Shown: piece by piece, positions 1,444 to 63,955 of the stretch
How the letters are laid out: every line of letters begins with the position of its first letter
Position numbering within the stretch: position 1 is the stretch's first letter
Origin: Euglena gracilis
Lineage: Eukaryota
Length of the DNA: 64,000 nucleotides
NCBI GenBank assembly: GCA_039621445.1
Contig: CP154954.1
Span: forward strand, 44,433,847-44,497,846
Direction: 5' to 3'
Notes under the pieces: model-generated
Told to the model about the DNA's origin: nothing
The model's database searches: none
What the model saw: only the letters and a program-made list of their open reading frames with translations
Translations under genes and position numbers: made by a program

Positions 1444-1887
1444 CAGGCTTTTGCTTAGGGCCCCCCGGGGGGGGGGGGGGGGTACTGGCTAGCCAATCGG
1501 CTAGACACTGGAAAAAGTGGACTAGCTAGCCCCCCCCCTCCCCCCGGGGGGGGGGGTCTGGGGGTCCCCCGGACTGGAAAAAAAATTTTCCTCCGGCGCA
1601 CAGCGCCGGAGGAAAAATGAGGTTTTTAACAGGTTTTGGGCTGATTTTGTTCCAAAAATTCCCAAAAATGGCCAAAAACGGGCATTTTGGGCCATTTTTG
1701 GGGGTCCCAAAAAAAATTTTCGGCGCTTTGCGCCGGTCACTGGAAAAATTTTTCCACTAGCTAGCCCTGCTAGCAGACCCCCCCCCGGGGGGGGGTCTGC
1801 TAGAAAACCCACTAGCCAAATTTGGACTAGCTGCAGTCCAGCCCCCCCCGGGGGGGGGGGTACTGCAATCCCTTAAGCAAAAGCCTG
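1444..1887. mobile_element. hAT-like MITE family 1 (TIR CAGGCTTTTGCTTA(A/G)G)
   Basis: TIRs caggcttttgcttag / cttaagcaaaagcctg, flanked by a perfect 8-bp TSD gttgggat. Further copies at 11568, 12376, 13182 and 22627. Confidence 0.9.
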
Positions 1888-8460: not shown

Positions 8461-9515
8461 GTCTACCCCCCTTTTCCCCGGTGGTCAGCGAAGAGATCGC
8501 TGAAGAGATCAGAGCTCAGTGACTCCCCACCACCTCAATACCAACAGACCAACAGACTTCACATACATCTTTGGGAGGGCGCAAATTTTGCATAGCCAGG
8601 GTTTGCATAGGCCGCAAAGATGCGCTTGGAAATGGGCCAAAGCCAGACAAAGAGGAACAAAAAGGTTTTTTGCTGTTGCGGATGTTGCCTTGTACCCTCC
8701 CTGAGCAGCCGTGGTTACCAATTTTTGGCCTGACAAGAAGCACTGATTACTATTGCTTTTAGACCGATTGGCAGAAGAAGACATCGAGACTCTTTGGGCA
8801 GAGAACAAAAAAAATGCCAACCTGGAGCGGCCCAGAAGCACCACTGCAACCTTCGATATCTCCCCAAAACGCGGGGTGAGGGTTGCGAGTGGCTGGAGTT
8901 TAGGTTGGGGTTCAGGTTTGGAAAACAGCCAGGTTTGGATGAAGGTTCAAATCAGGGATAGGATTGGGTGAGATTTGGGGGGGGGGGGGGCTGGGGATAA
9001 CCATGCATGCTGCGGCATACCAATGGTACCTATGGTATGCCATGGCATACCAATAACATGCATGCTGCCTGGCGCTGATACCTCAGGACGTCAGACCTCT
9101 CGTCACCGGGGAAGACCTTTGGGTCGGACGCGAACCTGGACGGCCTTTCTGGGACACTTGTAGCTCCACCTTTCCTTCCTCTCTTCCTCTTTGCACATTT
9201 GCCCCCCCCCCAAGGGGCTGGGCGAAAGCGGGTCAGCAATGGCCCACACGCGGCAGCCGCTGAAGGGCGGGAAAGGGGATGGCACAACGGCAGGAAGGGG
9301 CGGGGGCGGGGCAAAAGAGCCTGAGGGGCTGCTTTGGGGCCGGAGGTTTCACCCGTGGTCCCTTGCCGCGCGGACAGCGTTGTCCGACCCGATGCAGTCG
9401 CATCGGAAGACGGGTTGATCATGGGGGGAGACCTTGATTGCAGACATTGATTGCAATTTTGATGCGTTGGCGCAGATCCCTGTGTGCAAAGTCAAACAAA
9501 CCTTCCGGAGGGGAG

Positions 9516-9811
9516 CAGGCTGTTTTTTTTAACCAACCCCGGGGGGGGGGAGGGGGGTCCGGAGTGCCTGTGAGTGCCTGCCCAGGGAGGCACTACCCCC
9601 CCGGGGGTCGAATTTCGGCCTGTGCCCAGGCAAATTCCTTTGAAAATAGGCCATTTTTGGCTCCCCGGCGCCTTCGGCGCCGGGGTTGTGCTGGGGCACT
9701 TTTGGCTGTGTGCCCCCTGGGGGGGGTTGGATTTGGAGTGCCTTGGAGTGCCTGCCCAGGCAGGCACCCCCCCCCCAGGGTGGGATCGGCACCCGACTAA
9801 AATACGGCCTG
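9516..9811. mobile_element. hAT-like MITE family 2
   Basis: caggctgtttt...aatacggcctg; perfect 8-bp TSD gaggggag. Confidence 0.9.
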
Positions 9812-10436
9812 GAGGGGAGGTGACAGTTTTTCTGTTAAAACAGTTCTTTTTTTTGACCAATCATTAAATACCCGTTGTCGGCAGGCTTTTTTAAAGACCC
9901 CGGGGGGGTTAATTAGCCAGCCATTTTACAAGCCACTAGAAAGAAGCCACAAGTTAAATCCTTCGGGGGGGGGGGGGGGGGCGGGGTCCCCCAAATGGTA
10001 AAAAAAAAATTCTCCGCACCGAGGGAAAAATTGGACCTTTAATATGCTTTTTTGGGATGACTTTGTTCCAAAAAAAAAAACAACCAAAAATTGCTAAAAC
10101 TGGGCATTTCTTGGCCGGTTAGTGGATCCACCCTGGGGGTCCACTACGATTCCCATTGGCCAAATGTGGGCAAGCTGAAACCCAGCCCCTGCCCCCCCCC
10201 CCTTGGTGCAATGCGAACCCTTTCCCAGAAGCCTGCTCGAAGGTGTGTGGGTCACTGTTGGCAAAAAGAAAAATTATGAGAGAAAGATTTGGCGAGCAGG
10301 GGGGGGGGAACCTAACCAGAACCATGAAAATCCAAATTGTATTTTAATCTGGGCACTCTCGATTGCTCGTTCTCTGAACAACCATAACATCATACATCTC
10401 TTTAAGGACCCCGGGGGGGTTGCTGGGGAGGGTTAC

Positions 10437-13967: not shown

Positions 13968-14367
13968 TTTATCTTCGTAATTTGTGCGCATGTTCACCCT
14001 AACCCTGTTTTGAAAAAGCCTGTCTCTGGGGTCTAAACCATACTTCTTCCGAATAGCTTCGGATACATACGCCAAACCATTCCAATCGCTATCCATCCCA
14101 ACCCACGCCTTTCGCCCTGTCGAAAATACACTCTCGTCCTTCAGTAAAACCTTCAAAACCCTTCAGTCAGAGGAATAATTGGGCCAAAGATAAACAGGCG
14201 GGGGTCTAGGGGCCGGAAAGAACACCGTTTTCCGCAAATGGCACATACTGTGTGATGCACATGTGTAAGAGTGTGTGAAAGATGTGGGGAGTTAAAAACT
14301 GAGTAATTTTCCGACTGATTCTCTCTCTAAACAGATGCACGGTCTCCTGACGAGCAAGCATGTACAC

Positions 14368-14670
14368 GGGAGGAGGCTCGAGATTTCGTTCGAGGAGGCT
14401 CTAGAGCCTCCTCGAACGACCTCGAACGACGTTCGAGGAGGCTCTAGAGCCTCCTCGAACCTCCTCGAACCACGTTCGAGGAGGCTCTAGAGCCTCCTCG
14501 AACGACCTCGAACGACGTTCGAGGAGGCTCTAGAGCCTACTCGAACGTGGTTCGAGGAGGCTCTAGAGCCTCCTCAAACGCCTTTTAAGCCCCCCCTCGA
14601 GGGGGGGGGGTGCTTAAAAACGTTCGAGGAGGCTCGAGGTCGAACGTTCGATCTCGAGCCTCCTCCTACG
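14368..14670. repeat. Second foldback unit of CGAGGAGGCTCTAGAGCCTCCTCG palindromes
   Basis: Same palindrome as 10437-10730; a degenerate third copy lies at ~23955-24075. Confidence 0.85.
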
Positions 14671-15833
14671 GTTACCCCCCCGGGGTTGCTGGGCTAGGGC
14701 TAGAAATTTGGGCTGGCTAGCCCGCCCCCCCCCCCCGGGGGGGGCTGGACCCCGGCTGGACCCGAACCGGGGCGAGCTGGACTGAAATCGGAAAAATGCC
14801 AAAAAAATGACCCGCAGAACACAGTTTTGAAAAAAAAGATGCATCTGAAACCCCCCAAAAATGCCCCAAACGCCCCCCAAACCCCATTTTTGGCCACTTT
14901 TGAACACAGTTTTTCAAAAAATTTCGGCGCTTTGCGCCGAAAAATTTTGGGCTGGACCCCCCAAAATGGGCTGGCTGGCTGGGCTAGCAGCACCCCCCCC
15001 CGGGGGGGGGTGCTGCTGCGGCTGGGCTGGGCCCAAATCGGGGCTGGCTGCAGCCGCCCCCCCCCCCGGGGGGGTTCGCAAAACCTTAGAGAGATGTATG
15101 CATAACATGCATAACACACAAAACAGAATGACACCCACACCCACCCGCTGCTCCACAAGTGGGAAATGAAAAAGTGACCATTACAGCGGCTGGTTCCGAC
15201 GTATGGAGGAGGAAAACTGGTGTCCGGTGAAAGGAACAAATCTGGGAAATGAGAGAGAGAATGGGTGTGTGTGTTTGCGTGTTTGCAGAGGTGAATTATG
15301 GGACACGGTGTGGTGTCTGTCTGCGTCTCAAGGGTTAGGCTGGGAGAGCAGGAGGGGATGACGGGAGGGGGCAACAAAAACGGCGACAGGGAACTCTGCG
15401 GTGGCAGGACCCACGTTGAGGGGGAAGGGAAGGAGGCCCTCGCCCGGGCCTGCGAGGGCTGCAGGCAGCGGTGGGGCATGTTGGCTGTGGGGTCAGGACA
15501 TCTCGGGAGGCCATTGAGACCAATGGGCGGCGCACTGCAGCCATGACGCGCCTCGTGAGGCCTGCCCCCCCCCCACTGGGGCGATTTGCAGTATGGGTAA
15601 TTCCCCAAATAATACCCCTGGGGTATTATTCTTTCGCCCGAAGTCCTGGCCCGAGGGGGGGGATTATTTGGGGGGGGGGGGCAATACCACCCCAAAATTA
15701 TCGAAATTTTTCGAAGTCCCGTAGGAGCCAAAATAGCGCCAAAACTCCGTTTGGGGTCATTTTTTGTGCTTTCTTATGAAATTTACCATTTTTGGAGGTC
15801 ATATGATCCAGAAAAAATTGATTTTTTTTCGTA

Positions 15834-16308
15834 CCCGCCCCCCCCCCCCGGGCAATTGTCGCGTGACAAATCGGGCAGCACAGAGGGGGGTGACAATTTC
15901 CCGGGGTGACAATTTGGCCAGAACAGAGGGGGCTGACAATTGCCCGGGGCGTCAATTGCCCGGGGGCGTCAATTGCCCACCCATGTAAATCACATTTAAT
16001 CCAAATGACCAAGAACACCATCGGAAACACAAATGAACACAGGAAAAATGCAACTATGGTCGTGATATTGTACAGAGCGTTTGGTGTGCGAAAATTCTCA
16101 GCACGTTGTAGCGAAATAGAGGATCAATCGAGTTGTCGGCGAAAAGAAAATTCACAATGCAATACTGCAAATGCGGGGGTGACAAATTGGGCAGCACGGA
16201 AGGGGGTGACAATTTCCCGGGTGAAAAATTGGCCGGCACAGCCAGGGGTGACAATTGCCCAGGGGCGTCAATTGCCCGGGGGCGTCGATTGCCCGGGGGG
16301 GGCGCGGG
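15834..16308. mobile_element. Tc1/mariner-like MITE (TA TSD), family T2
   Basis: ta|cccgcccc..gggcaat ... attgcccgggg..cgcggg|ta with internal gtgacaatt repeats. Second copy at 30733-31214. Confidence 0.8.
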
Positions 16309-19300
16309 TAATTTGTTGTCAGAGATTGTGATTTTTACCGACATTTTCAGGTCAAAATCCGGTCCTTCGGCCCGAAACCGTGGGGGGGGGGTATTAAGCC
16401 GGTCGCCGAAGTCGGACCCCGAGGCGGGGGGGGGGTATTATTTGGGGGGTATTATTTGGGGGGAGGGTTCAATAAAGGTGAAAAGTTCCAGGCATACCAC
16501 CCCCATACATGCACCGGGAAACCTCCAGTATTCGGACATCTGAAGGGTGGTAACAAGCTGCTCGTTATCAACCCCGGGGATGCCCTCCAATGGAGCGCAT
16601 GCCCACCGGCCGATCCGGGCAAATCTTCTTTGAGGGCCAAGCTGAGGAGGGGGAGGGCTCCACCAACCCACCCACCACCACCACCCAGGGGCAACACTAC
16701 CCCCCCCCCCCAGGGAGGAGGGGCAGGGGTGTACGGGAATCCCCGAAACCCCATTGTGGTGGTGGGAGGGTCGACCAACCCCCCCCCTATTTTCGGGGGT
16801 GCCGCTTTTAGGTCAAAGCTTTCCTTCGGCTCCTTTGCCACGAAGGAATGGGCGGTGCCATGGTGACCTCCCAGGGCTGTCCGGGGGGGGGGGTCAATTT
16901 TGGGTTTTTCAACAAAAAAAAACAGAGGAAAACTTCCCAACCGCTTGACCCCAAGAAGGTGGGGGGGGAGGGTCAAATGGTGGACTCGCCCACCCTTTCC
17001 CTCCCCTTCTCACGGGAGTCCATCGTTTAAAAATTCCTGGGCATGACCCCTTCCCCTCCGGGGGGTCGGTGGGGGGGGGGGGTTGGTGGGGCCAAAGAAT
17101 GCCCAATACAGGTGCTGGGTATTATCTTAAATACCAGTGGTAGTAACCTTCTGTGGAAAAGGGGGAGGGGTAGATTTTTTTCGACGCCACATGCTGGGGA
17201 AAAAACCCACTTCGAAGCCTTGCAAAAACCATTTGAAAACCTTTAATCCTCATTCTAAAAGGGTCCTGGCATAAACTTTTCAGATAAAAATTACCTCTAA
17301 AAAGGATTTACATCAGTCAAATGCCCAAAATCTGCACTCTCCTGACGCTTCACATCACCCACCCCCTTGTCGAAGACAGCCTCTGCTTGACCCATCCATA
17401 TCAATGGGACAATGGCATGTTCTCAAACAACAAGCCATCACATAAAAAGGATCAGTCCCAACTTGTTTTCCATTTTGGTGCTGCTTTATTGACACAGAAC
17501 TCGGCACAAAACCCCAGTGTCAACTTTAACACCCCAGACATTTTCAAGACGGCATGGCTTCCACCACATGAGCATCGCCGGTGATCAGTGCGCCGGTGAG
17601 ACAGGTACACACAAGGGACGTTTTGGGGGCATTTAGCACCTCACTGAAAAGGTGGACAGGGGGGATAAGAGCGGAGAGGAGGAAATACACACACACGCAC
17701 AGAAGAGGTGTGACTGCGAGGTGAGAGAGACAGCAATTTCACAACCGATCACTGGCTGTCTTCATAAAAGACCCTGACCTCTCTTGCCGAACAGGGCTGG
17801 GGGGCGATTGGCTCTCAGAGTCTCGGGGGAAATCCATACAAGCTAGCAACCCTCCCTCCCAGGGGAGGGAACTGGCATTGCAACGGTGGGAGAAATTCCC
17901 ATACAGGAGGCAGTGACCCCCGGCCGAGGTTGTTTTCTTTTTTGACTTTGGTGCCCAAGGAAAACGTCGTTCCCTCTTCGTCTAAAAACTGAGAAAGATG
18001 GCGGGGAGGGGGTTTTGTTTGGCCAAAATATAGAGTGCCGATTTTGTTTGATTTTAATACCCCCTTGAGCTTTGTGGATGGTTACTCAACCCCAAGCCCC
18101 AAAGCCTATGTTAGCCCGTGGGGCTGTTGTGGTGGTGGTCTGTACACACTAGCACAGTCCTGCCCCACACAGCAGAACCCCAGCCAGCCGTGCCACAGGG
18201 CTGGGGTCAAGTCTGAAACCAGTCGTGCAACCCTTTTTGTTTGCATCTCTAAACCCAGCCCAGACAAGGTGATCAATACTGAGGCGGGTGGCTTTTGGAC
18301 AATACATGATAGTGACCCCTGTCAACGCTGAAGAGAATTCCTTGCAGATGGCTTGCAGTTATTCCTGATTCTGCAATATCTGCTCCAGCTTGTTTTTCAG
18401 CACCTCAGATCTTTCAAATTTGCTCAAGAAATCTTTTAGATGGGAGCGCACCTTTAAGAGACGCACCAGCCGCGCCACATTTTCCGCAATTTTTGCCGGG
18501 GAAAAACCATCCCTGCATTTGAATTCGAGCTTTATGAGCATTCCGTTGCCATCATTTTTCATGCAAAGTTTTGTTGCGTGCGTGAAATTTCTCTGTGTAT
18601 GTTTATGAACTTGTGCTTCCCGAAATTGGTCAAAAAATTCCAATACCAAAAACCAAGCCCGTGCAACCCTGACCTACCGGACTCGGGTTTACCCGCCTGT
18701 GACTTCGAGGCTTGCCCAAGCTGCTTCCTGATCCACTGGAGTTTTCACGGCCCATTTTCATCGGTTTTTGGTCCGCTTTGGAGCCAAAAATCGCGATCTT
18801 CCAAAGGAAGAAAATACAAACAAATGCACCCCCGTCAGATGAGGCATAGACAGAGGGTTCCTCAGGCTCCATTTTTGGTCGTCGGGCATTTCCTTCGGTT
18901 CCTTCTCTCAGGCTAATGTGGAGTTGTGGTTAAATCAAAATACTGGTAGATCGGGCACTCCCATGCTGATTGAAGGTCACCGGACAATTTTTTTTGGTTT
19001 TACCTCATATGCATTCAAATTGATTTCATTTTATTCATGGTATATATTCCACTGAACCATGATCCTTTTATGACCTTCATACTGTCCTTAGCTCGGCTCA
19101 ATCAAAAACCTGGTTTTCATTGGGTTCGATGAAGCCAAGCTGCAATTCCTTTAGTGGGGGTGGTCAAAGAGGGAAAAGACCACATTCTTTGGCCCCCGCC
19201 GAAACAAAATTTGAAAACTCATTTCATAAATTTTTCGTCTTACATGCGACCAAATGGGAGGGGGAGAGGAAAAAGGTTCAGCACAAAACGCGAAAGAATT

Positions 19301-19397
19301 CTTCACCCAAGCCGCATCTGGTCGGGGGTTTCCACTGCCTAAATTCTGGACACCTCGAGCCTCCTCCTGAAGGAAGCCCAAGCCCCATCCTCCCAAA

Positions 19398-19660
19398 CAG
19401 GTTGTTTTTAACCAACCCCGGGGGGGGGAGGGGGGGTCCAGAGTGCCTTGGGGTGCCTGCCCATGCAGGCACTACCCCCCCCCCGGGGTCGGATTTCGGC
19501 CTGCGCCCAGGCACATTCCTTTGAAAATGGGCCATTTTTGGCTCCCCGGCGCCTTTGGCGCCGGCGTCTGTGCTACTGCCCCCCCCCCGCGGGGGGGGGG
19601 GTCGGATCGGGAGTGCCTTGGGGTGCCTGCCCAGGCAGGGCACCACCTTAAAACAGCCTG
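19398..19660. mobile_element. hAT-like MITE family 2
   Basis: caggttgtttt...aaaacagcctg; perfect TSD ctcccaaa. Confidence 0.9.
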
Positions 19661-19736
19661 CTCCCAAACCAGTTGCATGAAAACAGCCGGGGTTGCAAAG
19701 GTGTCGGGGAGGGGAGACCGGGATGTGCCACCGCTG

Positions 19737-22700
19737 TTAGCAGCGGGGCGTCGCGGCGTCGTACAGGTCCTCTGTGGCGCACGACGGCTGGCGGTACACG
19801 GCGTGGGGGGAGGCCGGCTCCGGGTGGGGGGGCCGGTCCAGCAGGGAGCCGTCCGTCAGGGCCAGCAGCTCGAACACCACCATCTCCACCGCTGTCCGCA
19901 GACAGCCCCTTAAAGCGTGGGGCGGGGGGGGGGACGGATACGAAAGACACACCGGCCGCGGGGGAAACGGAATCAACGCCACGGGTAGGTCAGGAAACAC
20001 AGCAAGTGGTTGGCCTGAGGTCTAATGACAGAGAGGTCGAAAACATTTTGGCGTGAACTTTCTTGGCTGCAAACTGAGGTGAATAATGGGAACCCTGCGA
20101 AGCTGTCCATGCAGAGGTTATTTTTTAAGGACCCGGGTGGAGGGGGGTCCCCTTCCCGACCCTCCCCCCTCCCACTGGGTAAGACTGGCAGGAAGCTCCA
20201 AAAGTGCCCAAAATTGCGTTTTCAGGTATTTGCTTTCAGCAAATTGACAGAAACAGGTCATGAAAACATACGTCTGCTGGGAAAATTTCTTGGTTTCAAG
20301 GGGGGTCCCTGGACACCCCCTGGGGGGTTCAGACCCCCAGGGGGTGACCCCCCCTGGACAAAACCAACACTCACTTAATACCCTGCCCAGCCCGCCCGTC
20401 CCCCCCCCCGAGTCACCAAACTTAAAAAAAAATACTTGTGCCATTGTCCACTGTGGAAAGCTCTGACCTGGGTGCACATTCTGACACAGACGTTACTTAA
20501 TAAATTCATTTGAGATGTTGGTTGCAAAAATCGCCAACTTGCAAATGGCATGCTTTGGCACTGAACTCTACGATTCATTGCTCTGGAAAACACATAATTT
20601 GCAAATTATCCATTGTCCTGGACATTCACAAAATAGACAAAAAATCCGTCCAACTGTCCAAATACAATTTATCGAAGTTGCCAGAATCGAGTGGAAAACC
20701 TCCCTGGTTTAGACAAAACCAATTTCTTTTGGTTTCTGTTGCCAGCTGCAGCTGGCCGGGTCCCAACCAAAAACCCCAACAAATCATAGAAAATTGAGGT
20801 TATTTGAAGGAGTAGGATCAAGTTCTCGTGCGCACAACTGAATCCTTCCTGCAGAACGTCGTTATGTTGGCCTGACCCAAAGAGTCATTAATACACATGG
20901 GGGGCAAAGAGGGGCCAAACAAGCCAAATGTGCCGAGTGGCACATTTGGCCTCGCGTCCTCAACCTCAGTTGAGCAGCTCTTTGGGTTCACTGGTGCCTT
21001 GTGGGGATCAATTGGACCACATAATGATGCGACCCGATTGGGGTTGGGTTGTTGGACCTGTTGGCTCGTGAATGCCCACCCCTGGGAAACCGGGGAAGGA
21101 CCCACCGGGGGGAGGGGCTGGCCTGGCCTTGCCCTTCAGGCTGACGCCCTCCAGCCGGCGGGCGACCACCCGCCGCTCCACCGCTTCGTGCAGCTGCGGC
21201 CCGATGAGGATGCGCGTCTTGCGCTCCTTGTTGAGCCCCTCCAGCCGGCTTGGCCGCAGGCGCCCCTCGGGACCGGCCCCTCGGGGCCGAGCCCACGACA
21301 CTGGCGCGCCTGACGCCCACCAATACCGGCGAGTGGCGGGGACAGGGGGTTTTTTAAGACCGAGGGGGGGAGGGGCGAGGGGGTCGACACCCACCCACCC
21401 CCTGGGGTGGGGCTCCCGGGGGACCCTCCCACTTTTGCCCAAAAATGGCCAAAATGCTAAAAATAGCACCCTTTTCAAAAATTTTGGCGTCTTTGGCGCC
21501 AAAAAAGATATACCCACCAGCCCCTACCCCCACCCCCCCGGGGGAGGGGGAGGGGGTCCAAGGGACCCTACCCCCACCCTACCCCCCCCCCCGGGGGAGG
21601 GGGTCCAAGACTAAAAAAAACCGGGCGGGGGAGGGCGGGCCTGGCCGCCACGTTGACCACGTCCCCCACCACGGTGTAGTTCATGCGGTGCTGGGAGCCG
21701 AAGATGCCCGCCCGGACCTGCCCGGCCTCCAGGCCCATCCGCCCCGTGAGGTGGAGGCGCAGGGCACCCAGACCACAGGGGAGGGAACCCCCCGGACGCC
21801 CGCATGGGAGGGGGGTAGGAACACGGTGAGCCGGCGCAGTGTCCCTCCGCAGGGTGCTGGCCGCAGCCCCACCGTGCTGGGGCAGCAGTCCCCGATTGAG
21901 CTGAGTAGAATGAGGTGTACACGGCACAGAAGGTACCAGCTAACCCCCGATCAGAAGCCCTATCAGTCTGTTATTATGCACGTTGGTTAACGCCTGGGAG
22001 TAACGCCTGGGGGGGGGGGGGTTCTATCAGGCACAAATACAAGCTTTTCTCAAGTATTGTTGCTTTGGGGGGGGTGGAGGTTAATTTTAGAACTTTGGTT
22101 GAAAATACTGAGGGGGCTTCTGCCAGGGGCTTCTCCAAAAAAAAAGTGGGCAAAATTCTCCTTCCGGCGCTTTGTGCCGAGATTTTTTGGCACTTTTGAC
22201 AGGCTTTTTTTTTGCTCAAAAAAGTGTGAAAAATGGCAGTTTGGCAAATGTTTTTTGGCCAATTTCGGGAGTAAAAGTTTTCGGCCCGCGCTTCGCGATT
22301 TGGGACAGGGACATCTATTCTACTGGGGTTTGGTACTTGGGCTGGGGGACAAAGTCCCGAGGGCGGTTTGCTGTCTTCCAAAATGACACGTGAGCCAATA
22401 TGACCCCAACACGGCACCTTCCTTGAAAGTGGAGGGTGGGGTTGAGTGGGAGGCGGCAGGGGCACACGCCGCAACCCCCCCATCCCCCCCCCCCCCCCCC
22501 CCCCCACCCTCCCGGCCTTCGGCAGGCGCGCCGCGGGCGGAGGCCGGGGCCGTCCTGCCCGTGCAGCATCCAGTCCGCGCACTCCAGCGCCGCGCAGCAC
22601 GCCCGGAACTCATGGTCCGCCGTGGGCAGGCTCCGGCTTAAGGACCGTGGGGGGCACGCTGGCTGGCCATTTTGCTGGACGCTGGGGAAAACAGGAGGTC

Positions 22701-23917
22701 TTGTCACCAGCAAGACCTCCCAGGGGTCCCTGACGGAAAAAAAGTTTTTTTCCTCCGGCTGTGCGCCGAGGTTGAATGAGGAATTTAATATGTTTTTGGC
22801 CCGAAAATTCCCAAAAACAGACATTTTTGGCATAATTTGGTGGTTAAAAATTATTGTGCCAGTTACTGGGAAAAACTCTGCCAGCCCTGCTAGCAGGCCC
22901 GGAGGGTCCACCAGTATTTCCACAAATTTGGCTAAATTTGGACTACCTGCGGTCGATCCCCTTCCCGGGGGGGGGGGGGTACTGCGAACCCTTAAGCAGA
23001 AGCCTGGCCACGGGGGACGGCGTGTTCCAGAATGCCATGACACAGTCCCCGGCAGGGAGGCGGGTTTTGCCCAGGAAAGGAGCGACCCTCGGAGTGCAAG
23101 GCTACGACTTAAAGTATTGGATGCAACCGGGGGGGTTTCACAAAAAAAAAACAACCCAAAAAAACGAAAGGAGAGGACGGCCGGGGGGCGGTGGTAGCTG
23201 TGTTGCTGGGCGGGGTCCAGGCAGTGGGGGGGTCCAGAGCCGGAACTTGTATGGGTGGTAGCGGAGTTGTCCACCCCCACCCACCCACCCCCACCCTTAG
23301 ATTTTAGGCAAAAATTTTCCTTCACAGGAAGGGGGGACCGGATACCCTCAAACCCCCATTTTGCATTGTTTTTGACCATTTCTCCCTCAGAAATCTGGGG
23401 TTTGGACGAATTTCTTTCAGGCGCACCTCAAAGAAATACATCCATCCTATCATTCTTTTGTCATTTTCCAGAAAATACCGGAAATTTTCGGCTCAACACT
23501 TACCGACATTTCCCGGCGCGGGGCGAGACCCTGACAAGACCCCCCCCCCCGGGTTCCACTGAGTTCAAAAGGATATTGCCCCCCCCCCCCCCAGACAGCG
23601 GTGGCTCATGACTCAGCGTCATCAGCAAACTCTGTGCATCCTTTTCCAAATGGTGTGCTGCCCCCAACGCACTCACCCTGGCCGCCGATGTACTTGTCGA
23701 TCACCCCCCGGCGCCGCACGATGATGGAGGACAGCTCCTCGAAGAACGCGCCGATGCTCTCCACCAGCTGGGCCGCGTCGGTGGACTCCGTCAGGGTGGT
23801 GAAGTTCTCGATGTCGAGGAAGAACACCGTGGCGCGGGTGGGGACCATCGACAGCGCGACGGGGGTGCCGTGCTTCAGGCACGGCTGCAGCACCTCCACC
23901 GGCAGGAACCGCGTCGG
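19737..23917 (-). CDS. Adenylyl cyclase A, class III catalytic domain (exons ~23684-23917, 23010-23047, 22561-22621, 21647-21753, 21129-21251, 19737-19893)
   Basis: Spliced reading: RFLPVEVL..ATVFFLDIENFTTLTE..GVIDKYIG|DCVMAFWNTPSPV|ADHEFRACCAALECADWMLH|HLTGRMGLEAG..RMNYTVVGDVVNVA|SRLEGLNKERKTRILIG..VSLKGK|AVEMVVFELL..TPRC*. Both metal-binding Asp, the ATP-specifying Lys/Thr and the transition-state Asn/Arg are present. Exons join in frame using NNNCAG...CTGN5-6 junctions. Confidence 0.93.
21343..21623. mobile_element. hAT-like MITE family 3 in a cyclase A intron
   Basis: cagggggttttttta...ctaaaaaaaaccg; TSD ggcgggga/ggcggggg (7/8). Related to 25495-25765. Confidence 0.75.
22627..23006. mobile_element. 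Diverged family-1 MITE making up essentially the whole intron 22622-23009
   Basis: Ends caggctccggcttaagg / ccttaagcagaagcctg; interior matches 1444-1887 (ccctgctagcag, tactgc..cccttaagca); TSD gccgtggg/gccacggg (6/8). Confidence 0.85.
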
Positions 23918-24512
23918 AGCGACAGGCAGCGACCGCCAGACAGGAGGGGGCCGCAGGAGGAGGCTCGAGATTCCTGGAGCCATCTCATGGCAAACACGAG
24001 GAGGCTCGCGAGCCTCCTCGAGCCGTCCGATGACAAGCTCAAGGAGGCTGGCGAGCCGGCTCAGGGAGGCTCGCACTGCGTTTGCATGCGCATTGAGGCA
24101 AATACCCTGATTTTATGTATGCCCTTTCCCTCTGCCACGGTTCAAACCCTTGTGGTTCGGATGTGTATTATGACATATACCCTTTTGTTTTTGCCCTTTC
24201 CCTCTGTAACTGTTCTGCGGGCTTTTGAAAGCCACAAAGAAAACAACATCCTTTCTCACTCTTTCTGCACCGAGTACCCATTTCTGTTTCTTCTTCTTCC
24301 CCGTAAGTACATTGCACTTTTCTGAATGTGCGGGGGGTATTGCTTAAAGTTATTACCTGGGTGAATAAATTCTGTTTGTGGAAGCGGTTTCCTACAAAAA
24401 AAACAGCATTTCTTGATGTCTCCATCTCCCAAGCTTGGAGTTTTCTGCAAACTTGCAATTGACGGTAATGTGCTCAGAACACTGTTATTTGGCAAATCGG
24501 TCTAGCCTGGCT

Positions 24513-26765
24513 ACGGTGTCCAGCATGATGCGCATCTTAGCGAAGGACTCCATCATCAGGCCCAGCTCCGGCCAGGCTTCCTTTTTTGGGAACTGGAAAC
24601 CTTGGAAACTTCATTTCAGTGGACATCCCGCCTGGGAGCTGCCAGGCGTGGAACCCACCCCCCTGCACACCCTCAACTCCATTTTTAATTGTGTTTGAAC
24701 AGCTCCCTGGAATCGCCAGCTGGGCCCTAGCATACCCAGACCCAGAGGCTCATTCCTGGATATGCATTCACTTAGCGACTCCTTTTGGGTTTGAGCCCAA
24801 ACCCATCCACCCACAGGTGGGGGGGGGTCCCCCCCCCACTTGGGTGGTCGAGGCGGGGGGAGGGGTGGTCGATGGCCCACCCACCACCCGTTGGGTGTCC
24901 AAGACTCCCGTCCAGCCCTGGTCAACCCCACCCACCCACCCACCCGAAACCCACCCCAAAAATGGTTGAAACCCCACAGAAAACTTTGGCCTTTGGCCAC
25001 ACTGACCCGCACCCCACCCCCTGGGGGGGTGAAGTGCCCAACCCACTGACCCCCCCCTTCGGGGCAGTGGTGGTGTTAAATGAATCCTGGACCTCCCTGG
25101 AAAGGGGTTCCGAATCAATCAAAAAGAAATCTGGCCCCCGCACACAAGTGCCCCGGGGAACGGCGGTGCCCACCACGTCCAGCTCCACGCAGCGGTGCAT
25201 GTCCCAGCCAAAGGGGGTGGCGGTTGTCAGGTGCCCCAGAAGAACAACCATGTAATACAGTGAAGGAGAAGGCACGGCACCACAAAACACATCCACCGTC
25301 ACCCCAACTCTGATAAAAAGAAGAAAACAAAACGCCATACTGGAAATGTCGAAATGAAACGTACCAAGTGTGGGAAAAGCATGCCAATAATCTCGAGCTG
25401 CCAAATGAACCTCTGAATGAAGCTGTTTGGCTTGCGGGAAGGACCCCTCCAAGCTTCTGGAGGGTCTACGCCTGGACCATACCAATATGCCAAGCAGGGG
25501 TTTTTTTAAGACCGGGGGGGGTCCCCCCCACCCACCCACCCCCTGGGGGGCCCCCCCGGGGGGGGGGTCCCGGGGGACCCACAAAAAATGGCCGAAAAAT
25601 CGCGAAAAGTGCTAAAAATAGCATTTTTTCGGCGCCTGCGGCGCCGAAAAGTGTATCCCACCCCCCTCCGGGGGGACCCCCCGGGGGGGGGGGGGGGGTG
25701 GGCCGGACCCACCCACCCTACCCCCCCCTCCCCCCCCCGGGGGTCCACGACTAAAAAAACCCCTGATGCCAAGAAACAGCCCTTTGCTGAAGAATAATTT
25801 CGGCAAAAAGCGGCATGGAAAAAACAGAATGGGTGGTTGGAAATGCACATTTTATCTCACCATTGAAATTTGCCGTGTCGAACATATTCCCATTTGCTTG
25901 AGTTTGAAATCCAAAAAAAATATTTTCAGGAAATGTAAATAACGATGAATCTCCATGGTTCAGATTTAGTACTTTTTTGAAGTATCCTTTTGTACGACTC
26001 ATTTCAGTATGGTGCGGGGGGGGTTCTGTCGAATTAAGATTTTGGAACCAACTTAGGAGCAACCAATACAACAACTTTGAAGTTTCAAGGCTCAAACTGG
26101 AAATAAACTTCAGACCGGGATCCATTTTGTGACCGTTATTGAAATTGTGTGGGGATTTTTGGGGGTCTCCACCAAACTGTGGAAACACTTGGGAGGGATT
26201 TTGTTCCTCAAATTCTGTCACACCAACTTTATACCATGCTGATCCCCCCAGCAGCATGGTATGGTTTGCAGGCTGTTTTTTACCAACCCCGGGGGGGAGG
26301 GGGGGTCCGGAGTGCCTGTGAGTGCCTGCCCAGGCAGGCACTACCCCCCCCCCCGGGGGGGGGTCGGATTTCGGCCTGTGCCCGGGCACATTCCTTTGAA
26401 AATAGGCCATTTTTGGTTGTGCTAGGGCACTTTTGGCCGTGTGCCCCCCCGGGGGGGGGGGTCGGATTTGGAGTGCCTTGGGGTGCCTGCCCAGGCAGGC
26501 ACCCCCCCCCGGGGTGGGGTCGGCACCCGACCCCCCCCGGGGTGGGGTCGGCACCCGACTAAAATACAGCCTGATGGTTTGCCCTCAAACTGCCTGACAC
26601 ACTGCAGACTGAGCCTGCCAAAGCCTTTGGCCGCCCCCTTGCCAGGCAACCTTCCTCAGCGGGGAGGCGATCATCTTGTTGGTGAAAAGCACCGCGGCGA
26701 GGGCAACGGCGGCCAGGCTGGTGACGCTGATGATGACCAGCAGGGCCACTGACCACCGGATCGGC
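24513..26765 (-). CDS. Adenylyl cyclase A: TM2 and HAMP exons (~26645-26765, 25137-25206, 24513-24567)
   Basis: SVALLVIISVTSLAAVALAAVLFTNKMIASPLRKVA|WDMHRCVELDVVGTAVPRGTCVRE|LGLMMESFAKMRIMLDTV: a hydrophobic helix followed by a HAMP-like pattern, with consistent phases. Confidence 0.75.
25495..25765. mobile_element. hAT-like MITE family 3
   Basis: caggggtttttt...aaaaaaacccctg; perfect TSD atgccaag. Confidence 0.9.
26269..26573. mobile_element. hAT-like MITE family 2
   Basis: caggctgtttt...aaatacagcctg; perfect TSD atggtttg. Confidence 0.9.
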
Positions 26766-27554
26766 CGGTCGACGGGCCCGGTGGCCGTCTTGAGGCATTG
26801 GGTTGGGGGGGGGGGTCGGGACTGCGGTGGGAAATAGGACCCGCCACCTATGTTGGTTGCTCACCTGGGTGGTGTCAGGATCAGCTTGATGCCTCCTCCT
26901 TTTCCTCACTTCAAGCATTATGAAAAAGATTGCAGTAGAGTGTGCATTGATCTCCTGTGTCTGAAACACACCAGTTGCCATTGCATTGCTGGGGTGGATT
27001 TGGGCCAGTGACACAGCCCCTTACACCCCCAAAAATGCCAGGTCTCCAACATATTACTGTTGACATGGAGGTGCGCTAGCCCACCTTCGCAAAAAAAAAT
27101 GCACAAAAACACGTTACACAAGTGCAAAATCTGAGAGAAAAGGCGCAAAAAAAAATGAAAAATCATCATGAAAATGAAAAAATTACACCCAAAAACGTGC
27201 GAAAAAATCCAAATTTGAAAAACCATATGCAAATGTGAGGAGAATGCCATTTACAATAACAAAACCAGTTTAAATATAAATTATAAAAAAAGGAGAGCAA
27301 TACCAAAAATGCGCTGGAAAAAAAATGAAAAGCACAAAATGGGCAGAAATGCGGAGAAATTTTCATTTGCACACACCCCACATCAGCACTTGTATAAATC
27401 AGTGGGGGAGGTGCCAGCGATTTATCCGATCGCCATTCGCACCAGTTCAGTTCGTGTGGTCCATCATGGGGGCTCCGTTAGGCACAGCCCTCGACCACAC
27501 AGGTGGGGAGGGCCACTTTCTTGGAGAGAGAAAGAGGCGGCCCCCGGTCTGCAC

Positions 27555-37850
<10,296 letters not shown>

Positions 37851-44300: not shown

Positions 44301-44799
44301 ATTTGGACAAAGACCATTGATTCCATGAACCCAAAGGTGTTTATTTTCCTTCACCGGATGGCTTGTGGGTCGCGGGACTGGACATTATGCGGTCAATTAT
44401 GAGTGAGAATTTCCGTGCTGGACGTGCCCCTTTAGCATCCATTATGCCGGCTACAGATGTGTGCCGTGAACAGGGATGCCCCCCTCGAACGCAGCCTCCC
44501 CAACTCTACTGGGCTGGCAGTGTGGTGGGTCGAGCATTTGGGCTTGGGCAGGACCACAGACAGAGGGGAGGTGGGGCAGGGCTGGGCTGTGGGGGATGGC
44601 CTAGGGTAGACCCCCCCACCCGCCAAAAGAATGGCCCCATGCAAGAAACCCCTCAGGACCGAAAAATCACCGTCCCAGGGGAGGGGTGGTGGCCCCCACC
44701 CACTCATCCCGAGGGTGATGGGGACGGGGATGAGGTTGGCGGAGTGGGTGGGGTCGACTTCCCCCCCCCCCAGGGTTGTATGGGAATCTCCGAGGGGGG

Positions 44800-46330: not shown

Positions 46331-47151
46331 CCACCCTAGGGGGGGGGACCCCCTACCACCTATCTCATGTCTGCGGAGCTTCCCATAAAACCCTGCCCCC
46401 CCCACCCGTGGGGTTTCAGGGAGTCCCGGGCAGCCCAGGGCGCGGGCGTGTGGTTGGCGCAGCGGGGGCTGCCGGCGCTGCGGACTCTCACAGAGACTGC
46501 CGTGGAGCGTGAAGCGTATGGGACCGGCCCATAGGATTCAGGCAGAAGGGGCCCAGTGGTAGCAGGCTTCGTTTTTTTTATTTTATGGATCTGGAGATCT
46601 AGAGAGCCCTTTTTTCCTGAGAAGAGCGGGACATTCAGCGCACAAACAGTTCGAATGACAAATTGATCAGTGCTTGATGCGGTGCACCCCAGTTGAGGCA
46701 GCAGGGGTGTCTCACGCCACTCCTGCTGCGGGAGCTGCTCGGCAACCTCTGCAGGATGAACCCGAGATAATCCCGGTTTATAAGAGAGCATCATGGAATA
46801 TAATATCATCAAATCATGGAATCATAACACCATCATATATCATCATCGCAGAACAGAGCAGAATTGAACAGAATAGAGTAGGATAGGATAGGATGGGATG
46901 GGTTAGAATAGAACAGAATATCGGCACCACCTGTCACATGAGAAGGTCCGGGGTGACTTGGACGTCTTGTTCTCTTCCCCACATGCGACCGCCACCTCCC
47001 GGCTTGGCCCGCCGCTCCTCTCCCTTTTTGCCGCCGTCTGGCATCTACATGCAAGGCACCGCTGAGACGGGCCGCGCCACTGCTTGAGCGGTCTCCTCAT
47101 GCATCAATATGAAACCTGTGTGTAAGAGAGTGAGTGTGCGTGCATGCGTGC

Positions 47152-61800: not shown

Positions 61801-63955
61801 ACCTGCCCCGCCTCCAGGCCCATCCGCCCGGAGAGGCGGGCGCATGGGGCTCTGCTGGGAATGAGGCGGTGCGGGCGGGGGAAGGAATGGATTGCAGAGG
61901 GAAGTTGACTTGGGGGAATGGTGTCGTGGCTGTGAGAAGGTATCCGCCCGGTGCATCTCGCACAAACGAGGCTTTGCTGGTTCCCCACTGGTGATGAAAA
62001 GGGAGGAGGGTTGCACGGGAAAAGCCACCCTCTCCTGCTCTTTCCTGAGGACGGTTCACCATCAGCGCGTCTTTTAACGACCCCCTCCCCCAGGTTGTCC
62101 AGTTCAGAGGCTGGAAAACTCGGGCTGCCGGATGAAGGCTGCTGGTTGACCTTGGGGTGCCAGGCTTGGGCTGGAACTGGGCCCAACCCAGGGTCGAACC
62201 GGGAACCCAAATTTCAACACTGCAAAACTCCAAAAAAAAATCTCCAATTGTGCAAAAAGACGATTTTTTTCACCCCAAATTCGTCCTGGCCAGCCCTTTC
62301 CGACCCATTTTTGCCCATTTTCGGCCCATTTTTTGAAGCACCTGAAAGCCAAAATTTCATCACCGTCCAGGGTGGCTTGGAACAAATGATAAAACCCGTT
62401 GATGGGGGGCGTCTAAGCTGGAAAAAGGCTGGCTGGCTCCTCCCTGGGGGTGGGATCGAATTTTCTTCAACTCACCAATCTTTCTGCATCCCTGGCTGCC
62501 GTTCTGTGCCCCCCCCCCCCAAGTGGAAATCACACAAGATGACCATATCCTATTGCCCAGATTGATTCCACTTCCCGCCTGGCCGGAGAACGTCCGTCCA
62601 AAATCAGTCATCACGGCCAGAAGGCAGGTCTTCAGCCCATCCCCCATCTCCGGGCCCCGCGATAAAAAAGCCACCCAGCCTGCGGGGCCGCAGGGCGCCA
62701 TGCCCGCAGGGAGCCGCCCTGCCGGTGGACCATCCAGTCCGCGCACTCCAGCGCCGCCCGGCACGCATGGTACTCGTGGTCCTTGACGGGGGACGGGGCG
62801 TTCCAGAAGGCCATGACGCAGTCACCGGCAGGCGATGGGCCGGGGCTTTGTTGTCCAGAAATGCGGGTCTTGAAAAGCAGGGGATGCCAGTGTTCACGGT
62901 TTTCAAAAACGACAGAGAAAAGGATGTGGTCGGGAAATAAAAAAAAGCACACAACCAACACCCTTCACAGCCCTCCACCCATTACCCCACAACGATGTCA
63001 TCTCGTTTCTGTGCATTACATCCTTTGATCCTGAATCTCTTTGGTAAAGGAAACGCTTGCTGAAATCAACGGCAAATAACTGCGGACAAAGATCAATCCC
63101 TCGTCCAGGAAACCACGAGTATCAAAGAGAAGCAGGGAGTGAGATGCTTCTCCAGCGGGTCTAACACAGCACTCCAAACTCATGCATATGGTCTGGGGCC
63201 AAGGCCCACCCTGGCCGCCAATGTACTTGTCGATCACCCCGCGGCGCCGCACGATGATGGAGGACAGCTCCTCGAAGAACGCGCCGATGCTCTCCACCAG
63301 CTGGGCCCAGGGATCGGCAACAAACAAAAGCCAGAAAAACAAACGCGAACCGCCACCGAACTACCCTGCATTCAGCCTCAGAACAAAGTGCTCTAATTGT
63401 GCCAAGGGCTGGAGCACTGGTGGGCGTGGATTTACCTCGCCAGGTCGGGAAAAACCGCTGCAGACCATTGTCCTTCAGCAATGCAAAGCCCCAGCAGGGG
63501 GGGGGGGAAGATATTTGCAAAAGGAGGGCATTGCAGGAAGTAATCCATCCGGAGACATTTTTGGTGCACAGGGCGAAGCGCCAAGCTGAAAAACCTGCCT
63601 CCCAAAATGCTTCCTGGAGTCAGTCCCTTCCTGGAGTCAGTCTGGCCCTCCTGGTAGGTGGAGGTTTGGTCCGGACCCCCCTCCAATCTAGGAGGGGGGG
63701 GGGGTGTCAACCCCCATCCTGGACACCCTCCATTGTCCCCAGGATTTGATCCACAAAGCTGTTGGGGGAGGTTGAAAACTCATTGCAAAGAACTGATATG
63801 CCCAATCCCACGGGTAATGGGGTTGGGGAACTCTTCTTCTATTGGTGAAAGTTCGTTCTGCCCTCAACGGCATGCGAAGACCTGACTGGGCCGCATCGGT
63901 GGACTCGGTTAGGTTGGTAAAGTTCTCAATGTCAAGGAAGAACACTGTGGCAGCC
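49837..63955 (-). CDS. Adenylyl cyclase B (tandem paralog, 5' part beyond the window): exons ~63888-63955, 63217-63302, 62725-62823, 61732-61838, ~54778-54872, 52756-~52787, 49837-50017
   Basis: ATVFFLDIENFTNLTESTDAAQ|LVESIGAFFEELSSIIVRRRGVIDKYIG|DCVMAFWNAPSPVKDHEYHACRAALECADWMVH|RLSGRMGLEAG..NYTVVGDVVNVA|SRLEGLNKERKTRILIG..|RRLDGVYLKGK|AMGMSVYELL..; highly similar to cyclase A. Confidence 0.9.
50560..51220 (+). pseudogene. Possible degenerate hAT-type transposase remnant
   Basis: QFGKDVGKAFAACNIPM resembles the hAT/CGGBP-like 'F..D+..A+..ANIP' segment. Downstream frameshifted LIVFIEVTRD and PAFRMAI..CMSAH weakly resemble the first-Asp and CxxH motifs. Judged by eye only. Confidence 0.3.
51319..52141. 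mobile_element. hAT-like non-autonomous element with (CCCTGGTCGG)n subterminal repeats
   Basis: TIR caggcacctatgg / ccgtaggtgcctg; perfect 8-bp TSD cttgggaa. Confidence 0.9.
52202..52337. repeat. (GGGATTTGTC)n decamer repeat, two blocks
   Basis: Directly visible; also at ~50084-50113. Confidence 0.9.
55946..56008. other. GC-rich hairpin (17-bp outer stem plus an overlapping 12-bp inner stem)
   Basis: gtcggtgtgcgcaaatg ... catttgcgcacaccgac; inner aaatgcgcacat-cgtcc-atgtgcgcattt. Confidence 0.8.
56526..59021 (-). CDS. Helitron-type HUH Rep endonuclease (Helitron2/Helentron-like); frame open to a stop at 59061-59063, true start uncertain
   Basis: 831-aa ORF: FPTLF, motif I FFTFAPND, motif II EAQSRGSLHGHGVFW (HUH), HRC..C..CRFGMP, motif III YVVGYCTK (Y2), an acidic tract, and the C-terminal linker WAQFVMTLIVPW. 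Confidence 0.92.
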   Translation of the reverse strand: MCFEDLIARGSFPTLFMTYQGIEKNSGLNTETVRHLLYQYDHRFSENRDFVLLLFNQKLRHMALRSISRRLKATPSFLTRFENAVNSVDFKERLAEAMKNPTGSLATKLLMEFLPIIRTCHSIVPFGSSERYATLGKMQAMLAWFGMPSVFFTFAPNDVDNMLTLALCLGKAKLSLKMPETSEKFAAISNNPVAAARIFERQVLAFMKVLLRVPDAQTTRKHESTCSRKVGMHGTPVAAVICTEAQSRGSLHGHGVFWGGIPPHVLDSIIHDEETIKVAARALDSQISTSLSNVVHEKWEQRQREHCPAPRMLEEKEYLPPLPENVQDAYMSITKFAEEVMGALQIHRCFIPSCGKPPAGKFGCRFGMPRACGLLSDETRPHLFVARKVDTGGHDLQEIPLEHVANIAQDPTIDSHLVVWETKRPHKCDGRVVDCSKIVSFVLACNSNAQILGGEVGVLALANYVVGYCTKNPVKLGGVLSVLRHVMDEVEERLGHKIQDKEDYAALLKRVVNAMDRKIEVGAQMAATAVLGFPSWHASHKFVMVNPWHYISNLPALFPNVEQLGDKKTNEDTICVSGATNIGGEGDELCNIDGAAQIRDENNDNDIADEMDNDDDDDEDDSEHEESQNECAENTNKDGDGEDRRMLDATAILMDSRGMDNLDDPFVEEVGTTELVSLLHEGKSIIVGFPAAYNYALRGGELENISALEYAAHFSLQTDANAGSTDGEPCPKVTTFILHDRHLLAGTWVQKMGNQFRCPVLSGKKLPKWPGADGLPRIQNTWAQFVMTLIVPWSIDNPPKISWADFCIFLVDLCICANRPKNHFEHRRYKG
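59152..61560 (-). CDS. Pif1-family SF1B helicase of Helitron type with a C-terminal C2H2-like finger; frame open up to the TIR (61644)
   Basis: AGPGTGKS, MAPSGVAA, GSTCH, LLIDEMSM, PFGG..MGDFVQIPPV, QHR, GLSNGT, FATTFHGVQCRTLD, YVGISRVR; C-terminal CRMGCGRTW..HRKLHEPHC. Confidence 0.95.
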   Translation of the reverse strand: MKSLTTVSQKSSILSAIIRNRNQKKWGTAHPLDINFDALAERSAMQEMRHCTKIQHFHDTLHNLHEAMQKFSNEGFNESDHDEPRLVNVLLKTFARHGEEHGQPMPSPTTSKCFALHINNANPFDPKVPLSDTLNKTYLALKSDDFPRAELGSRVGTNPATVHLCGQSSVLLTEEQESFVKMITDYVQLVCIADPSCKTTAPLVVVHAGPGTGKSTMARELHNRLSMAFGSNVLRFMAPSGVAACNLHRGSTCHHAVGLSVYGEEGMNDTAQDGGREKLYRLRSQFTGCKVLLIDEMSMLTCKMLRDIDKRMRKVCDNNTEPFGGMGVVLMGDFVQIPPVGGGDLYIKPKTQFAGMLDALEGYTLFQSFKVLSLNTQHRAKDPEHMAAVAAYRNFSLQGLQARDTFLASLKMITASDFQRDRSWSNALIVSTDRKCVHMVNEVMVRLCAESMRKPIIKWKLPLKNDFAACIGEDLQNVMYAKVKDLWAYVVEGCPITLTYNIRPERGLSNGTRAFIHSLVLNEHDLQETLERISGALPGEIITLEYPPYAVNVVVSGEVTGDAALGVTEEGGRIIPLFSMPREVNVARYMHLSSKKRGIVTVMAHPFNLLFATTFHGVQCRTLDKIILCVDHPITPTLSYNAFYVGISRVRRTEDIRLIQLRSNDDLCTIVRRLRSLLPRAQLVNYMCQHKSMPMTFKHLQNLYLQVGISYDGKGADKVLKPGADNVLKFQCRKARNEHEKICATILQHSGLYACRMGCGRTWTKDAHRKLHEPHCKSLHNPANGDVLHCIASLGSFEPSTQ

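Follow-up and report, generated by a model that had tools for sequence, protein, structure and literature searches.

The nonconventional introns of euglenids follow a splicing code that was worked out by knock-in mutagenesis (PMC12501133). As given in the parts of that paper at hand, the code comprises CAG and CTG motifs, a spacer of strictly 3 nt before CAG, one of 5 nt (6 nt is tolerated) after CTG, pairing just inside both motifs, and a purine as the first nucleotide of the next exon; it is summarized as N3CDG-/-CH'GN5-6 followed by R. The spacers were established with insertion and deletion knock-ins and with synthetic introns. The code is present in 61.2% of nonconventional introns, with N5-6 and CGG/CCG variants accepted. 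Synthetic introns without direct repeats were spliced, and direct repeats are found at 84.4% of the introns of E. agilis. Euglenids gain nonconventional introns at a high rate; in one species, these make up about 72% of all introns. Here we describe a nonconventional intron in cyclase A, a putative adenylate/guanylate cyclase gene on a 64,000-nt stretch of Euglena gracilis DNA (contig CP154954.1, positions 44,433,847 to 44,497,846; hereafter, the window). This intron is very probably a transposon that inserted into a coding exon of the gene and is spliced out together with one duplication's worth of flanking sequence.

A transposon origin has been proposed before. Milanowski et al. (2014; PMC3935182) suggested that nonconventional introns arose from transposable elements of the miniature inverted-repeat type (MITEs), at a time when no euglenid transposable element had been identified. 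A 2024 review (PMC11282704) refers to the CAG/CTG ends as terminal inverted repeats ('TIR') and to the repeats at the junctions as target-site duplications ('TSD') in the legend of its Fig. 3D; the terms '8 bp', '8-bp', '8 nt', and 'hAT' do not occur in the review text at hand. The MITE hypothesis is restated in a 2024 survey of E. gracilis introns and in a 2025 paper on diplonemids (PMC12621601), while the 2025 paper on the splicing code says, in its passages on origin, that this 'remains unclear' and raises MITE-like elements as no more than a possibility. We share with PMC3935182 and PMC11282704 the reading by which the inverted repeats found at an intron's ends are transposon ends and the direct repeats found at its junctions are TSDs. 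Compared with the passages of these papers at hand, cyclase A adds an example at the level of a repeat family and the arithmetic of 3 + 5 = 8. Within the literature that we searched, whose coverage leaves out many subscription journals and supplements, we found no family-level example and no link to 8-bp duplications, to hAT elements, or to 3 + 5 = 8.

The cyclase A intron shares with the introns of PMC12501133 the lack of GT-AG borders, CAG at positions +4 to +6, CTG at positions -8 to -6, the pairing inside these motifs, a purine as the first base of the exon that follows, and removal at the RNA level. It differs from those treated in the available text in that it can be recognized as belonging to a repeat family, the other copies of which are found outside exons and have perfect 8-bp duplications, and in having two spacers that sum to the length of the duplication (8). 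Introners, as described for Micromonas, dinoflagellates, and others in the relevant sections of PMC11282704, are also short, non-autonomous elements with TIRs and a TSD; the duplication helps to define the cuts, and the element turns into an intron upon insertion. However, introners use spliceosomal sites of the GT/AG type that are derived partly from the element and partly from the duplication, whereas the cuts in cyclase A are measured from the CAG/CTG stem. Another parallel is the maize Ds element, a non-autonomous member of the hAT family that is spliced from the RNA as a new intron when it sits in an exon. Such a case was reportedly described by Giroux et al. in 1994. Removal of Ds depends on spliceosomal sites and is usually imprecise, whereas removal of the cyclase A element is exact, by construction.

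The cyclase A intron and its repeat family

On the minus strand, which encodes cyclase A, the upstream exon ends with ...AACACGCCGTCCCCCGTGGC (ending CCCGTGGC). Then come CAGGCTTCTGCTTAAGG..., the rest of a 380-nt element, and the element's end, ...CCTTAAGCCGGAGCCTG, which is followed by CCCACGGC and then GGACCATG / GGACCATGAG. The intron consists of this element and 8 flanking nucleotides, with no other sequence (Table 1). The 8-mers that flank the element are identical at 6 of 8 positions. The two differences are GT upstream versus AC downstream, and they lie in the intronic part of the downstream copy under every placement of the intron. The exon translations on the two sides of the element are in different frames of the unspliced DNA.

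The element belongs to a family with 7 copies at 5 loci in the window; just one of the 7 forms a whole intron. The four near-intact copies are 91-96% identical to one another, and the intact copies show inverted-repeat pairing at 14 of 14 positions. We built a profile of the family from these four copies (the reference element is 445 bp long), and the intron copy matches it from end to end. After 20 nt were removed from each end, the intron copy scored 116 bits against the family, while 200 dinucleotide shuffles had a mean of 21.8 bits (standard deviation of 2.6; maximum of 31.1). An earlier note on this stretch, based on the sequence alone, had described the intron as a diverged copy of the MITE at 1444-1887, and both the end-to-end match and the score of the interior, above all shuffles, bear this out. 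The coordinates and sequence elements in that description are all present, with one detail to correct: like the copy at 1444, the intron copy is in (+) orientation. This orientation is opposite to that of the gene; the ends are symmetric, so nothing else is altered.

The window has 10 occurrences of the 17-nt terminal repeat (with up to 3 mismatches), versus 0.29 expected, and none of 100 shuffles reached 10. The copies range from 354 to 451 bp, which is too small for a transposase (the protein-family search covered long open reading frames of the window). The duplications differ by insertion: GTTGGGAT and GCTCGGGT are each perfect (8/8), and the flanks match at 6/8 for the intron copy and at 4/8 for the copy at 9882. 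The three copies at 11568, 12376, and 13182 have the same 8-bp flank and therefore go back to a single insertion, with tandem duplication afterwards; a unit made up of the MITE and about 363 bp of flank occurs in three head-to-tail copies across 11568-13632, with a period of about 808 bp. A scan of metagenomes with the 17-nt terminal repeat yielded 71 loci with a single match each. None of the 71 had a second, inverted end within 100-3000 bp, and we rejected them as chance matches.

To examine the RNA, we aligned four public runs to positions 14001-29500, at 95% identity or higher for each read; paralog B of the cyclase (see below) and the family copies at 1444 and 11568 lie outside this range. 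X1 and X2 are sets of contigs that were guessed to be RNA, X21 consists of raw reads that are recorded as RNA-seq from the same species label, and X20 is the best DNA-like run (with 0.66 of the words). The joint from 22618 to 23007, one of the 15 listed out of 753, skips 388 nt (380 + 8), and 3 letters fit either side of it. It is supported by one contig in X1 (depth of 208.1), one contig in X2 (depth of 112.2), and 8 reads (5+3) with 8 starts in X21. In X20, no contigs have this joint. X20 does hold a contig from inside the intron (with differences at 22852-22864), and other joints do appear in X20; the neighboring joints of the same RNA contigs are absent from it. Among the rows listed, there are no extra letters for the joint. 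The spliced mRNA retains the upstream GT (CCCGTGGC/GGACC, where the slash marks the junction) and encodes ...SPVADHEF.... Thus, as the earlier note proposed, splicing removes the element plus one TSD equivalent and restores the frame: the RNA skips 380 + 8 nt, and the paralogs are collinear.

Four placements of the intron (22619-23006, 22620-23007, 22621-23008, and 22622-23009) give an identical mRNA. None of them has GT/GC-AG borders: the borders are CA-GC, CC-GG, GC-CG, and GG-AC. Only 22622-23009 fits the published code at both ends, as GGC-CAG...CTG-CCCAC/G, and this is also the placement with the junction (23010/22621) that had been predicted from the sequence. We infer the exact cut from the code. 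All four placements would give the same circular intron, so the sequence of a circle could not tell them apart.

The predicted fold of the intron with short flanks contains two 8-bp helices of the TIRs, in both the minimum-free-energy (MFE) structure and the centroid, and it is unusually stable (z = -4.1; none of 100 shuffles was as stable). The GT/AC changes in the flanks convert G-U wobbles to Watson-Crick pairs, which results in a perfect 6-bp helix (CCGUGG/CCACGG) that is present in the fold. The two cuts given by the code would fall within this helix, offset by 2 bp, and the intron would be left with a 3' overhang of 2 nt. Cuts with this offset may fit the proposal of an RNase III plus a ligase for related introns, as it is put in the portions of PMC12621601 at hand. 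Pairing of the flanks is not general: the flanks of the intron at 19894-21128 are unpaired.

The following series of events would account for these observations. A non-autonomous DNA transposon of about 445 bp, with 17-nt CAG/CTG TIRs and 8-bp duplications, would have inserted in an exon of one cyclase paralog. In the pre-mRNA, the terminal repeats would pair and thereby present CAG and CTG to the nonconventional splicing machinery, which would make its cuts 3 nt upstream of CAG and 5 nt downstream of CTG. The duplication is 3 + 5 nt long, so these cuts would remove the element and exactly one duplication's worth of sequence, and the frame would be restored (...NTPSPV/ADHEF...).

Table 1. Positions in the window of the cyclase A intron, its parts and flanking exons, two features of paralog B, and the copies of the repeat family
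Feature	Position	Strand	Details
Nonconventional intron, 388 nt	22622..23009	-	Placed by the N3-CAG...CTG-N5 code
Upstream TSD copy, 8 bp, CCCGTGGC	23007..23014	-	By the code, positions 1-5 are exonic and 6-8 are the intron's 3-nt spacer
Downstream TSD copy, CCCACGGC, 6/8 match	22619..22626	-	Positions 1-5 are the 5-nt intron spacer; 6-8 open the next exon
TIR at 5' side of intron	22990..23006	-	1 mismatch to the family 17-mer; pairs with 22627-22643 in MFE and centroid structures
TIR at 3' side of intron	22627..22643	+	3 mismatches to the family 17-mer
Cyclase A exon upstream of intron, 44 nt	23007..23050	-	...GDCVMAFWNTPSPV
Cyclase A exon downstream of intron	22536..22618	-	ADHEFRACCAALECADWMLH...
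Paralog B exon with uninterrupted 'empty' site	62704..62827	-	CCCGTCAA/GGAC; protein ...SPVKDHEY...; same exon sequence in P0001
Intron in B only, 585 nt (577-nt CAG...CTG element + 8)	63303..63887	-	Flanks GGCCCAGT/GGCCCAGC, 7/8; fits N3-CAG...CTG-N5/A
Diverged full-length MITE copy, 380 bp	22627..23006	+	nhmmer, profile 1-446, 167.7 bits, E = 6.2e-51
Near-intact MITE copy	1444..1887	+	Perfect 8-bp duplication GTTGGGAT; ends CAGGCTTTTGCTTAGGG...CCTTAAGCAAAAGCCTG, same as the intron element
Three near-intact MITE copies	11568-12012, 12376-12820, 13182-13632	+	Common flank GCTCGGGT
Diverged, internally deleted family copy	9882..10235	+	Profile match; flanks 4/8
Diverged family copy, ends not recognizable	14688..15088	+	Profile 37-434, 80.4 bits

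Paralogs of the host gene

Judging from its sequence, the host gene is probably a class III adenylate/guanylate cyclase of a Euglena-type organism. When compared to the catalytic domain in Pfam (PF00211), single cyclase exons scored 19.2 and 18.7 bits, which is under the cut-off of 21.9, because the domain is divided by introns. A protein search with a neighboring exon identified P0001 (eukprot:EG_transcript_1910) and P0002 (EG_transcript_2386) as the closest database proteins, with 93% and 81% identity to one exon; both of them carry PF00211. P0001 matches the exons of paralog B letter for letter in the stretches that we checked, and P0002 is a third paralog.

Paralog B had been thought to lack an intron at this site, and its DNA is indeed continuous there (...NAPSPVKDHEYH...), with no insertion or deletion in the two transcript-derived proteins. 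P0001 (SPVKDHEY) and P0002 (SPVEDHEY) have the same length at the junction as the spliced product of A (SPVADHEF), so removal of 388 nt restores the ancestral spacing of the family. The exons of A and B that flank the intron are 75.6% and 89.4% identical, which is below the 95% threshold for the reads, so cross-mapping from B is excluded. The insertion presumably postdates the duplication that gave rise to A and B. Beyond the exon ends, A and B remain similar for no more than about 40 nt, which leaves no neutral standard for dating the insertion.

Paralog B also has an intron that A lacks (63303-63887; Table 1). Cyclase A is continuous at this site, and removal of the intron is shown by P0001, which reads TDAAQ/LVESIGAF with the exact exons of B. 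The fold of this intron is not exceptional (z = -1.3).

We made a few other observations on these genes. At residues 570-590 of P0001 (62828-63217 in the window), the protein reads KYIG-KTRISGRQSPGPSPA-GDCVMAFW, compared to KYIGDCLMAFW in P0002. The transcript of B therefore uses an acceptor that lies 15 codons upstream, and the resulting insert is in the middle of a conserved cyclase motif. Using P0001, we located the next exons of cyclase B at 54871-54773 and 50016-49840. Two open reading frames on the minus strand at 56529-61644 (844 and 830 amino acids) match Helitron_like_N (74.1 bits) and PIF1 helicase (84.3 bits), and a Helitron-type element appears to lie inside a cyclase B intron of ~6.85 kb (exon end at 61725, next start at 54871, position VVNVA/SRLEG). 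On the side of cyclase A, many DNA contigs in X20 join 19553-19564 to 26415-26418 and skip about 6855 nt; the simplest explanation is one repeat with copies at both places, and not a deletion allele.

Other introns and other CAG...CTG elements

The earlier note went further and argued that 3 + 5 = 8 explains the intron consensus. We considered 11 introns of cyclase A, 8 of which come from the table of joints and 3 from loose ends of contigs, along with the B-only intron. None of the 11 introns is of the GT/GC-AG type. Five of the 11 fit the code (15521, with CGG/CCG and N6; 19893; 21251; 22618; and 24567), and five have CAG...CTG spacers that sum to 8 (19893, 21251, 22618, 24567, and 23050), one of which, as read from a single contig, does not allow a 3 + 5 split. 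The others have spacer sums of 5, 9, 10, or 12 or have no recognizable motif. For the six introns with a sum of 8 (A and B together), the flanks are identical at 4, 2, 6, 5, 6, and 7 positions, or 30 of 48. This exceeds the value for every one of the 265 derangements of the flanks (mean of 20.8 and maximum of 29), in what is a small sample from one gene family; the background is high, as GGC is often found ahead of CAG. Flanks are best preserved at the two paralog-specific introns (6/8 and 7/8), which is what one would expect if their identity is lost over time.

Four of the five introns that fit the code or nearly do so (19893, 21251, 22618, 24567, and 23050) have GGC as the 3-nt spacer before CAG, and the exons that follow these introns start with AGC, AAG, GGC, or AGC. 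This pattern could reflect either the target sites that the transposase prefers or an additional preference of splicing.

When we searched the window for relatives of the introns, 6 of 12 had no match, and the rest matched only nested repeats. In particular, the intron at 21252-21646 (GGC-CAG...CTG-CGGCC/A) fits the code, is at a position common to paralog B, and holds a nested relative of the element at 25495-25765. We had considered this intron as a second case of an element forming a whole intron but rejected it, as the match is to the nested copy only. Older introns therefore act as landing sites for elements of the same kind.

We also scanned the window for CAG...CTG pairs that are 60-3000 bp apart and have at least 12 of 14 inverted-repeat matches. 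Among the 90 pairs, 10 had flanks identical at 8/8 positions in register, while none reached 8/8 in six shifted registers (the maximum was 7/8). The 10 pairs represent 6 independent loci: 1444, the 11568 cluster, 25495-25765, 26269-26573, 51319-52141, and 44771-46395 (where the flank is poly-C). Two of these, both near-intact, belong to the intron's own family. The other four are elements of different families, each with a perfect 8-bp duplication (ATGCCAAG, ATGGTTTG, and CTTGGGAA, in the order given, and poly-C for the last); the first two of them are nested in the intron of cyclase A at 25204-26641, and relatives of the element at 26269-26573 occur at 9515-9797, 19398-19647, and 2069-2370. 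Several families of CAG...CTG elements, all with 8-bp duplications, thus populate the region.

The 8-bp duplications and the short, CAG-led inverted repeats point to the hAT superfamily. According to the passages of PMC3942097 at hand, hAT elements are defined by 8-bp TSDs and by inverted repeats of 10-25 bp; the elements described here have 8-bp duplications and TIRs of about 17-18 bp. They resemble hAT elements such as Ac/Ds or BuT2 and its MITEs (PMC3942097) in these two respects, and the primers for the termini of BuT2 start with CAG. Unlike for those elements, no transposase or autonomous partner of the cyclase A family was seen in the window. Among seven duplications that we read, 4 have T at position 2 and 3 have A at position 7, from few sites. 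The target preference of hAT elements is nTnnnnAn, and other superfamilies can also make 8-bp duplications. The hAT label, a spread of these elements as introners, and a genome-wide explanation of the consensus may all hold, with support from the window that is moderate and from a small sample.

Alternative explanations and implications

Several observations weigh against our reading of the locus or against its extension. The 6/8 identity of the flanks is weak by itself, as controls with shifted registers reached at least 6/8 in 9 of 540 comparisons. The intron copy is only about 64-67% identical to the intact copies; together with its imperfect flanks, this suggests that it is old or that it comes from a different subfamily. 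The RNA is compatible with four placements of the cuts, and the choice of 3 + 5 comes from a published code that was built on other introns. X1 and X2 were classed as RNA by guess only, and the joint is marked 'between: not known'. A gain of the intron in A and a precise loss in B are both possible, and the interiors of A and B introns cannot be aligned. Of the 11 RNA-supported introns of cyclase A, 6 do not fit the 3 + 5 code; the intron at 23051-23686, with CAG...CTG spacers that sum to 8, can only be split as 4+4 to 7+1, and it is known from the loose end of a single contig, which differs from the window at 2 of the following 21 letters and may derive from a paralog. Finally, none of the 43 long open reading frames of the window that were searched in Pfam matches a hAT transposase; only Helitron-type proteins were found.

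For the locus itself, the rival explanations fare poorly. It is scarcely credible that the joint is an artefact of a near-identical intronless paralog or retrocopy that was placed on gene A. There are indeed several cyclase paralogs (A, B, and the third, P0002), and one X1 contig on A diverges just beyond the exon end. However, the joint and its neighbors on the same contigs are absent from the DNA-like run, in which other joints do appear; B is too diverged in the flanking exons to pass the identity threshold; and P0002 differs at the junction. An equally slim chance attaches to the idea that the element landed in an older nonconventional intron at this codon. Nesting does occur, as seen for the two elements within 25204-26641 and for the relative of one of them within 21252-21646, but this intron is nothing more than the element and 8 nt, matches the profile from the first to the last base, and is skipped as 380 + 8, while paralog B and the proteins show no length difference derived from an older intron; this idea is close to refuted. 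The family might instead descend from an intron that became mobile, for instance via circular RNA, which we consider very unlikely. Excised nonconventional introns are reported to be circular RNAs (cited in the available parts of PMC11282704 and PMC12621601), and no other full-length copy in the window is as diverged as the intron copy. But the perfect 8-bp duplications of the intergenic copies differ by locus (GTTGGGAT and GCTCGGGT), which is the signature of staggered cutting of DNA, and copying through RNA would have brought along the 3-nt and 5-nt spacers of the donor.

Beyond this locus, we see an even chance that the 3-nt and 5-nt spacers of euglenids are matched to the duplication of 8 bp that CAG...CTG (hAT-like) transposons make and that most nonconventional introns are aged insertions. 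It is also quite conceivable, if not what we would expect, that 3 + 5 = 8 is incidental for euglenid introns generally. The cyclase A intron would then truly derive from a transposon, while the spacers would reflect the geometry of the enzyme, such as a 2-nt staggered cut, and most nonconventional introns would not have begun as elements with 8-bp duplications. The introns of gene A that fall outside the code (6 of 11), the spacer sums of 5, 9, 10, and 12 (15521, 17746, 23915, and 25203), and the flank identities of just 4/8 and 2/8 at two code-fitting introns all favor this explanation. So does the common GGC before CAG, which raises the background identity to a mean of 20.8/48, and so does the published code, which, in the text of PMC12501133 at hand, accounts for 61.2% of nonconventional introns and accepts N5-6 and CGG/CCG. 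On the other hand, the two paralog-specific and presumably younger introns have flanks of 6/8 and 7/8 and spacers that sum to 8, the total of 30/48 for own pairs beats all 265 derangements, and the window commonly has CAG...CTG elements whose 8-bp duplications are perfect. Also, the synthetic introns of PMC12501133 imply that the machinery does not need direct repeats, so the repeats at 84.4% of E. agilis introns need some other explanation.

In summary, this locus provides a repeat family with intact copies outside genes and one copy that corresponds, to the base, to an intron verified by RNA. It also provides an arithmetic reason (3 + 5 = 8) why the frame is restored after insertion, and it turns a ten-year-old MITE hypothesis into testable predictions. 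If the match between spacers and duplications is general, then an element that lands in an exon, in either orientation, would be erased from the mRNA without a scar, given a duplication with a purine at position 6. Most Euglena introns are 'slidable' on account of direct repeats, which would be decayed duplications. There would be consequences for the enzymology as well: there would be a 2-nt stagger between the cuts across the stem, and this offset (5 minus 3) would correspond to cutting of the stem in the manner of RNase III, with ligation afterwards.

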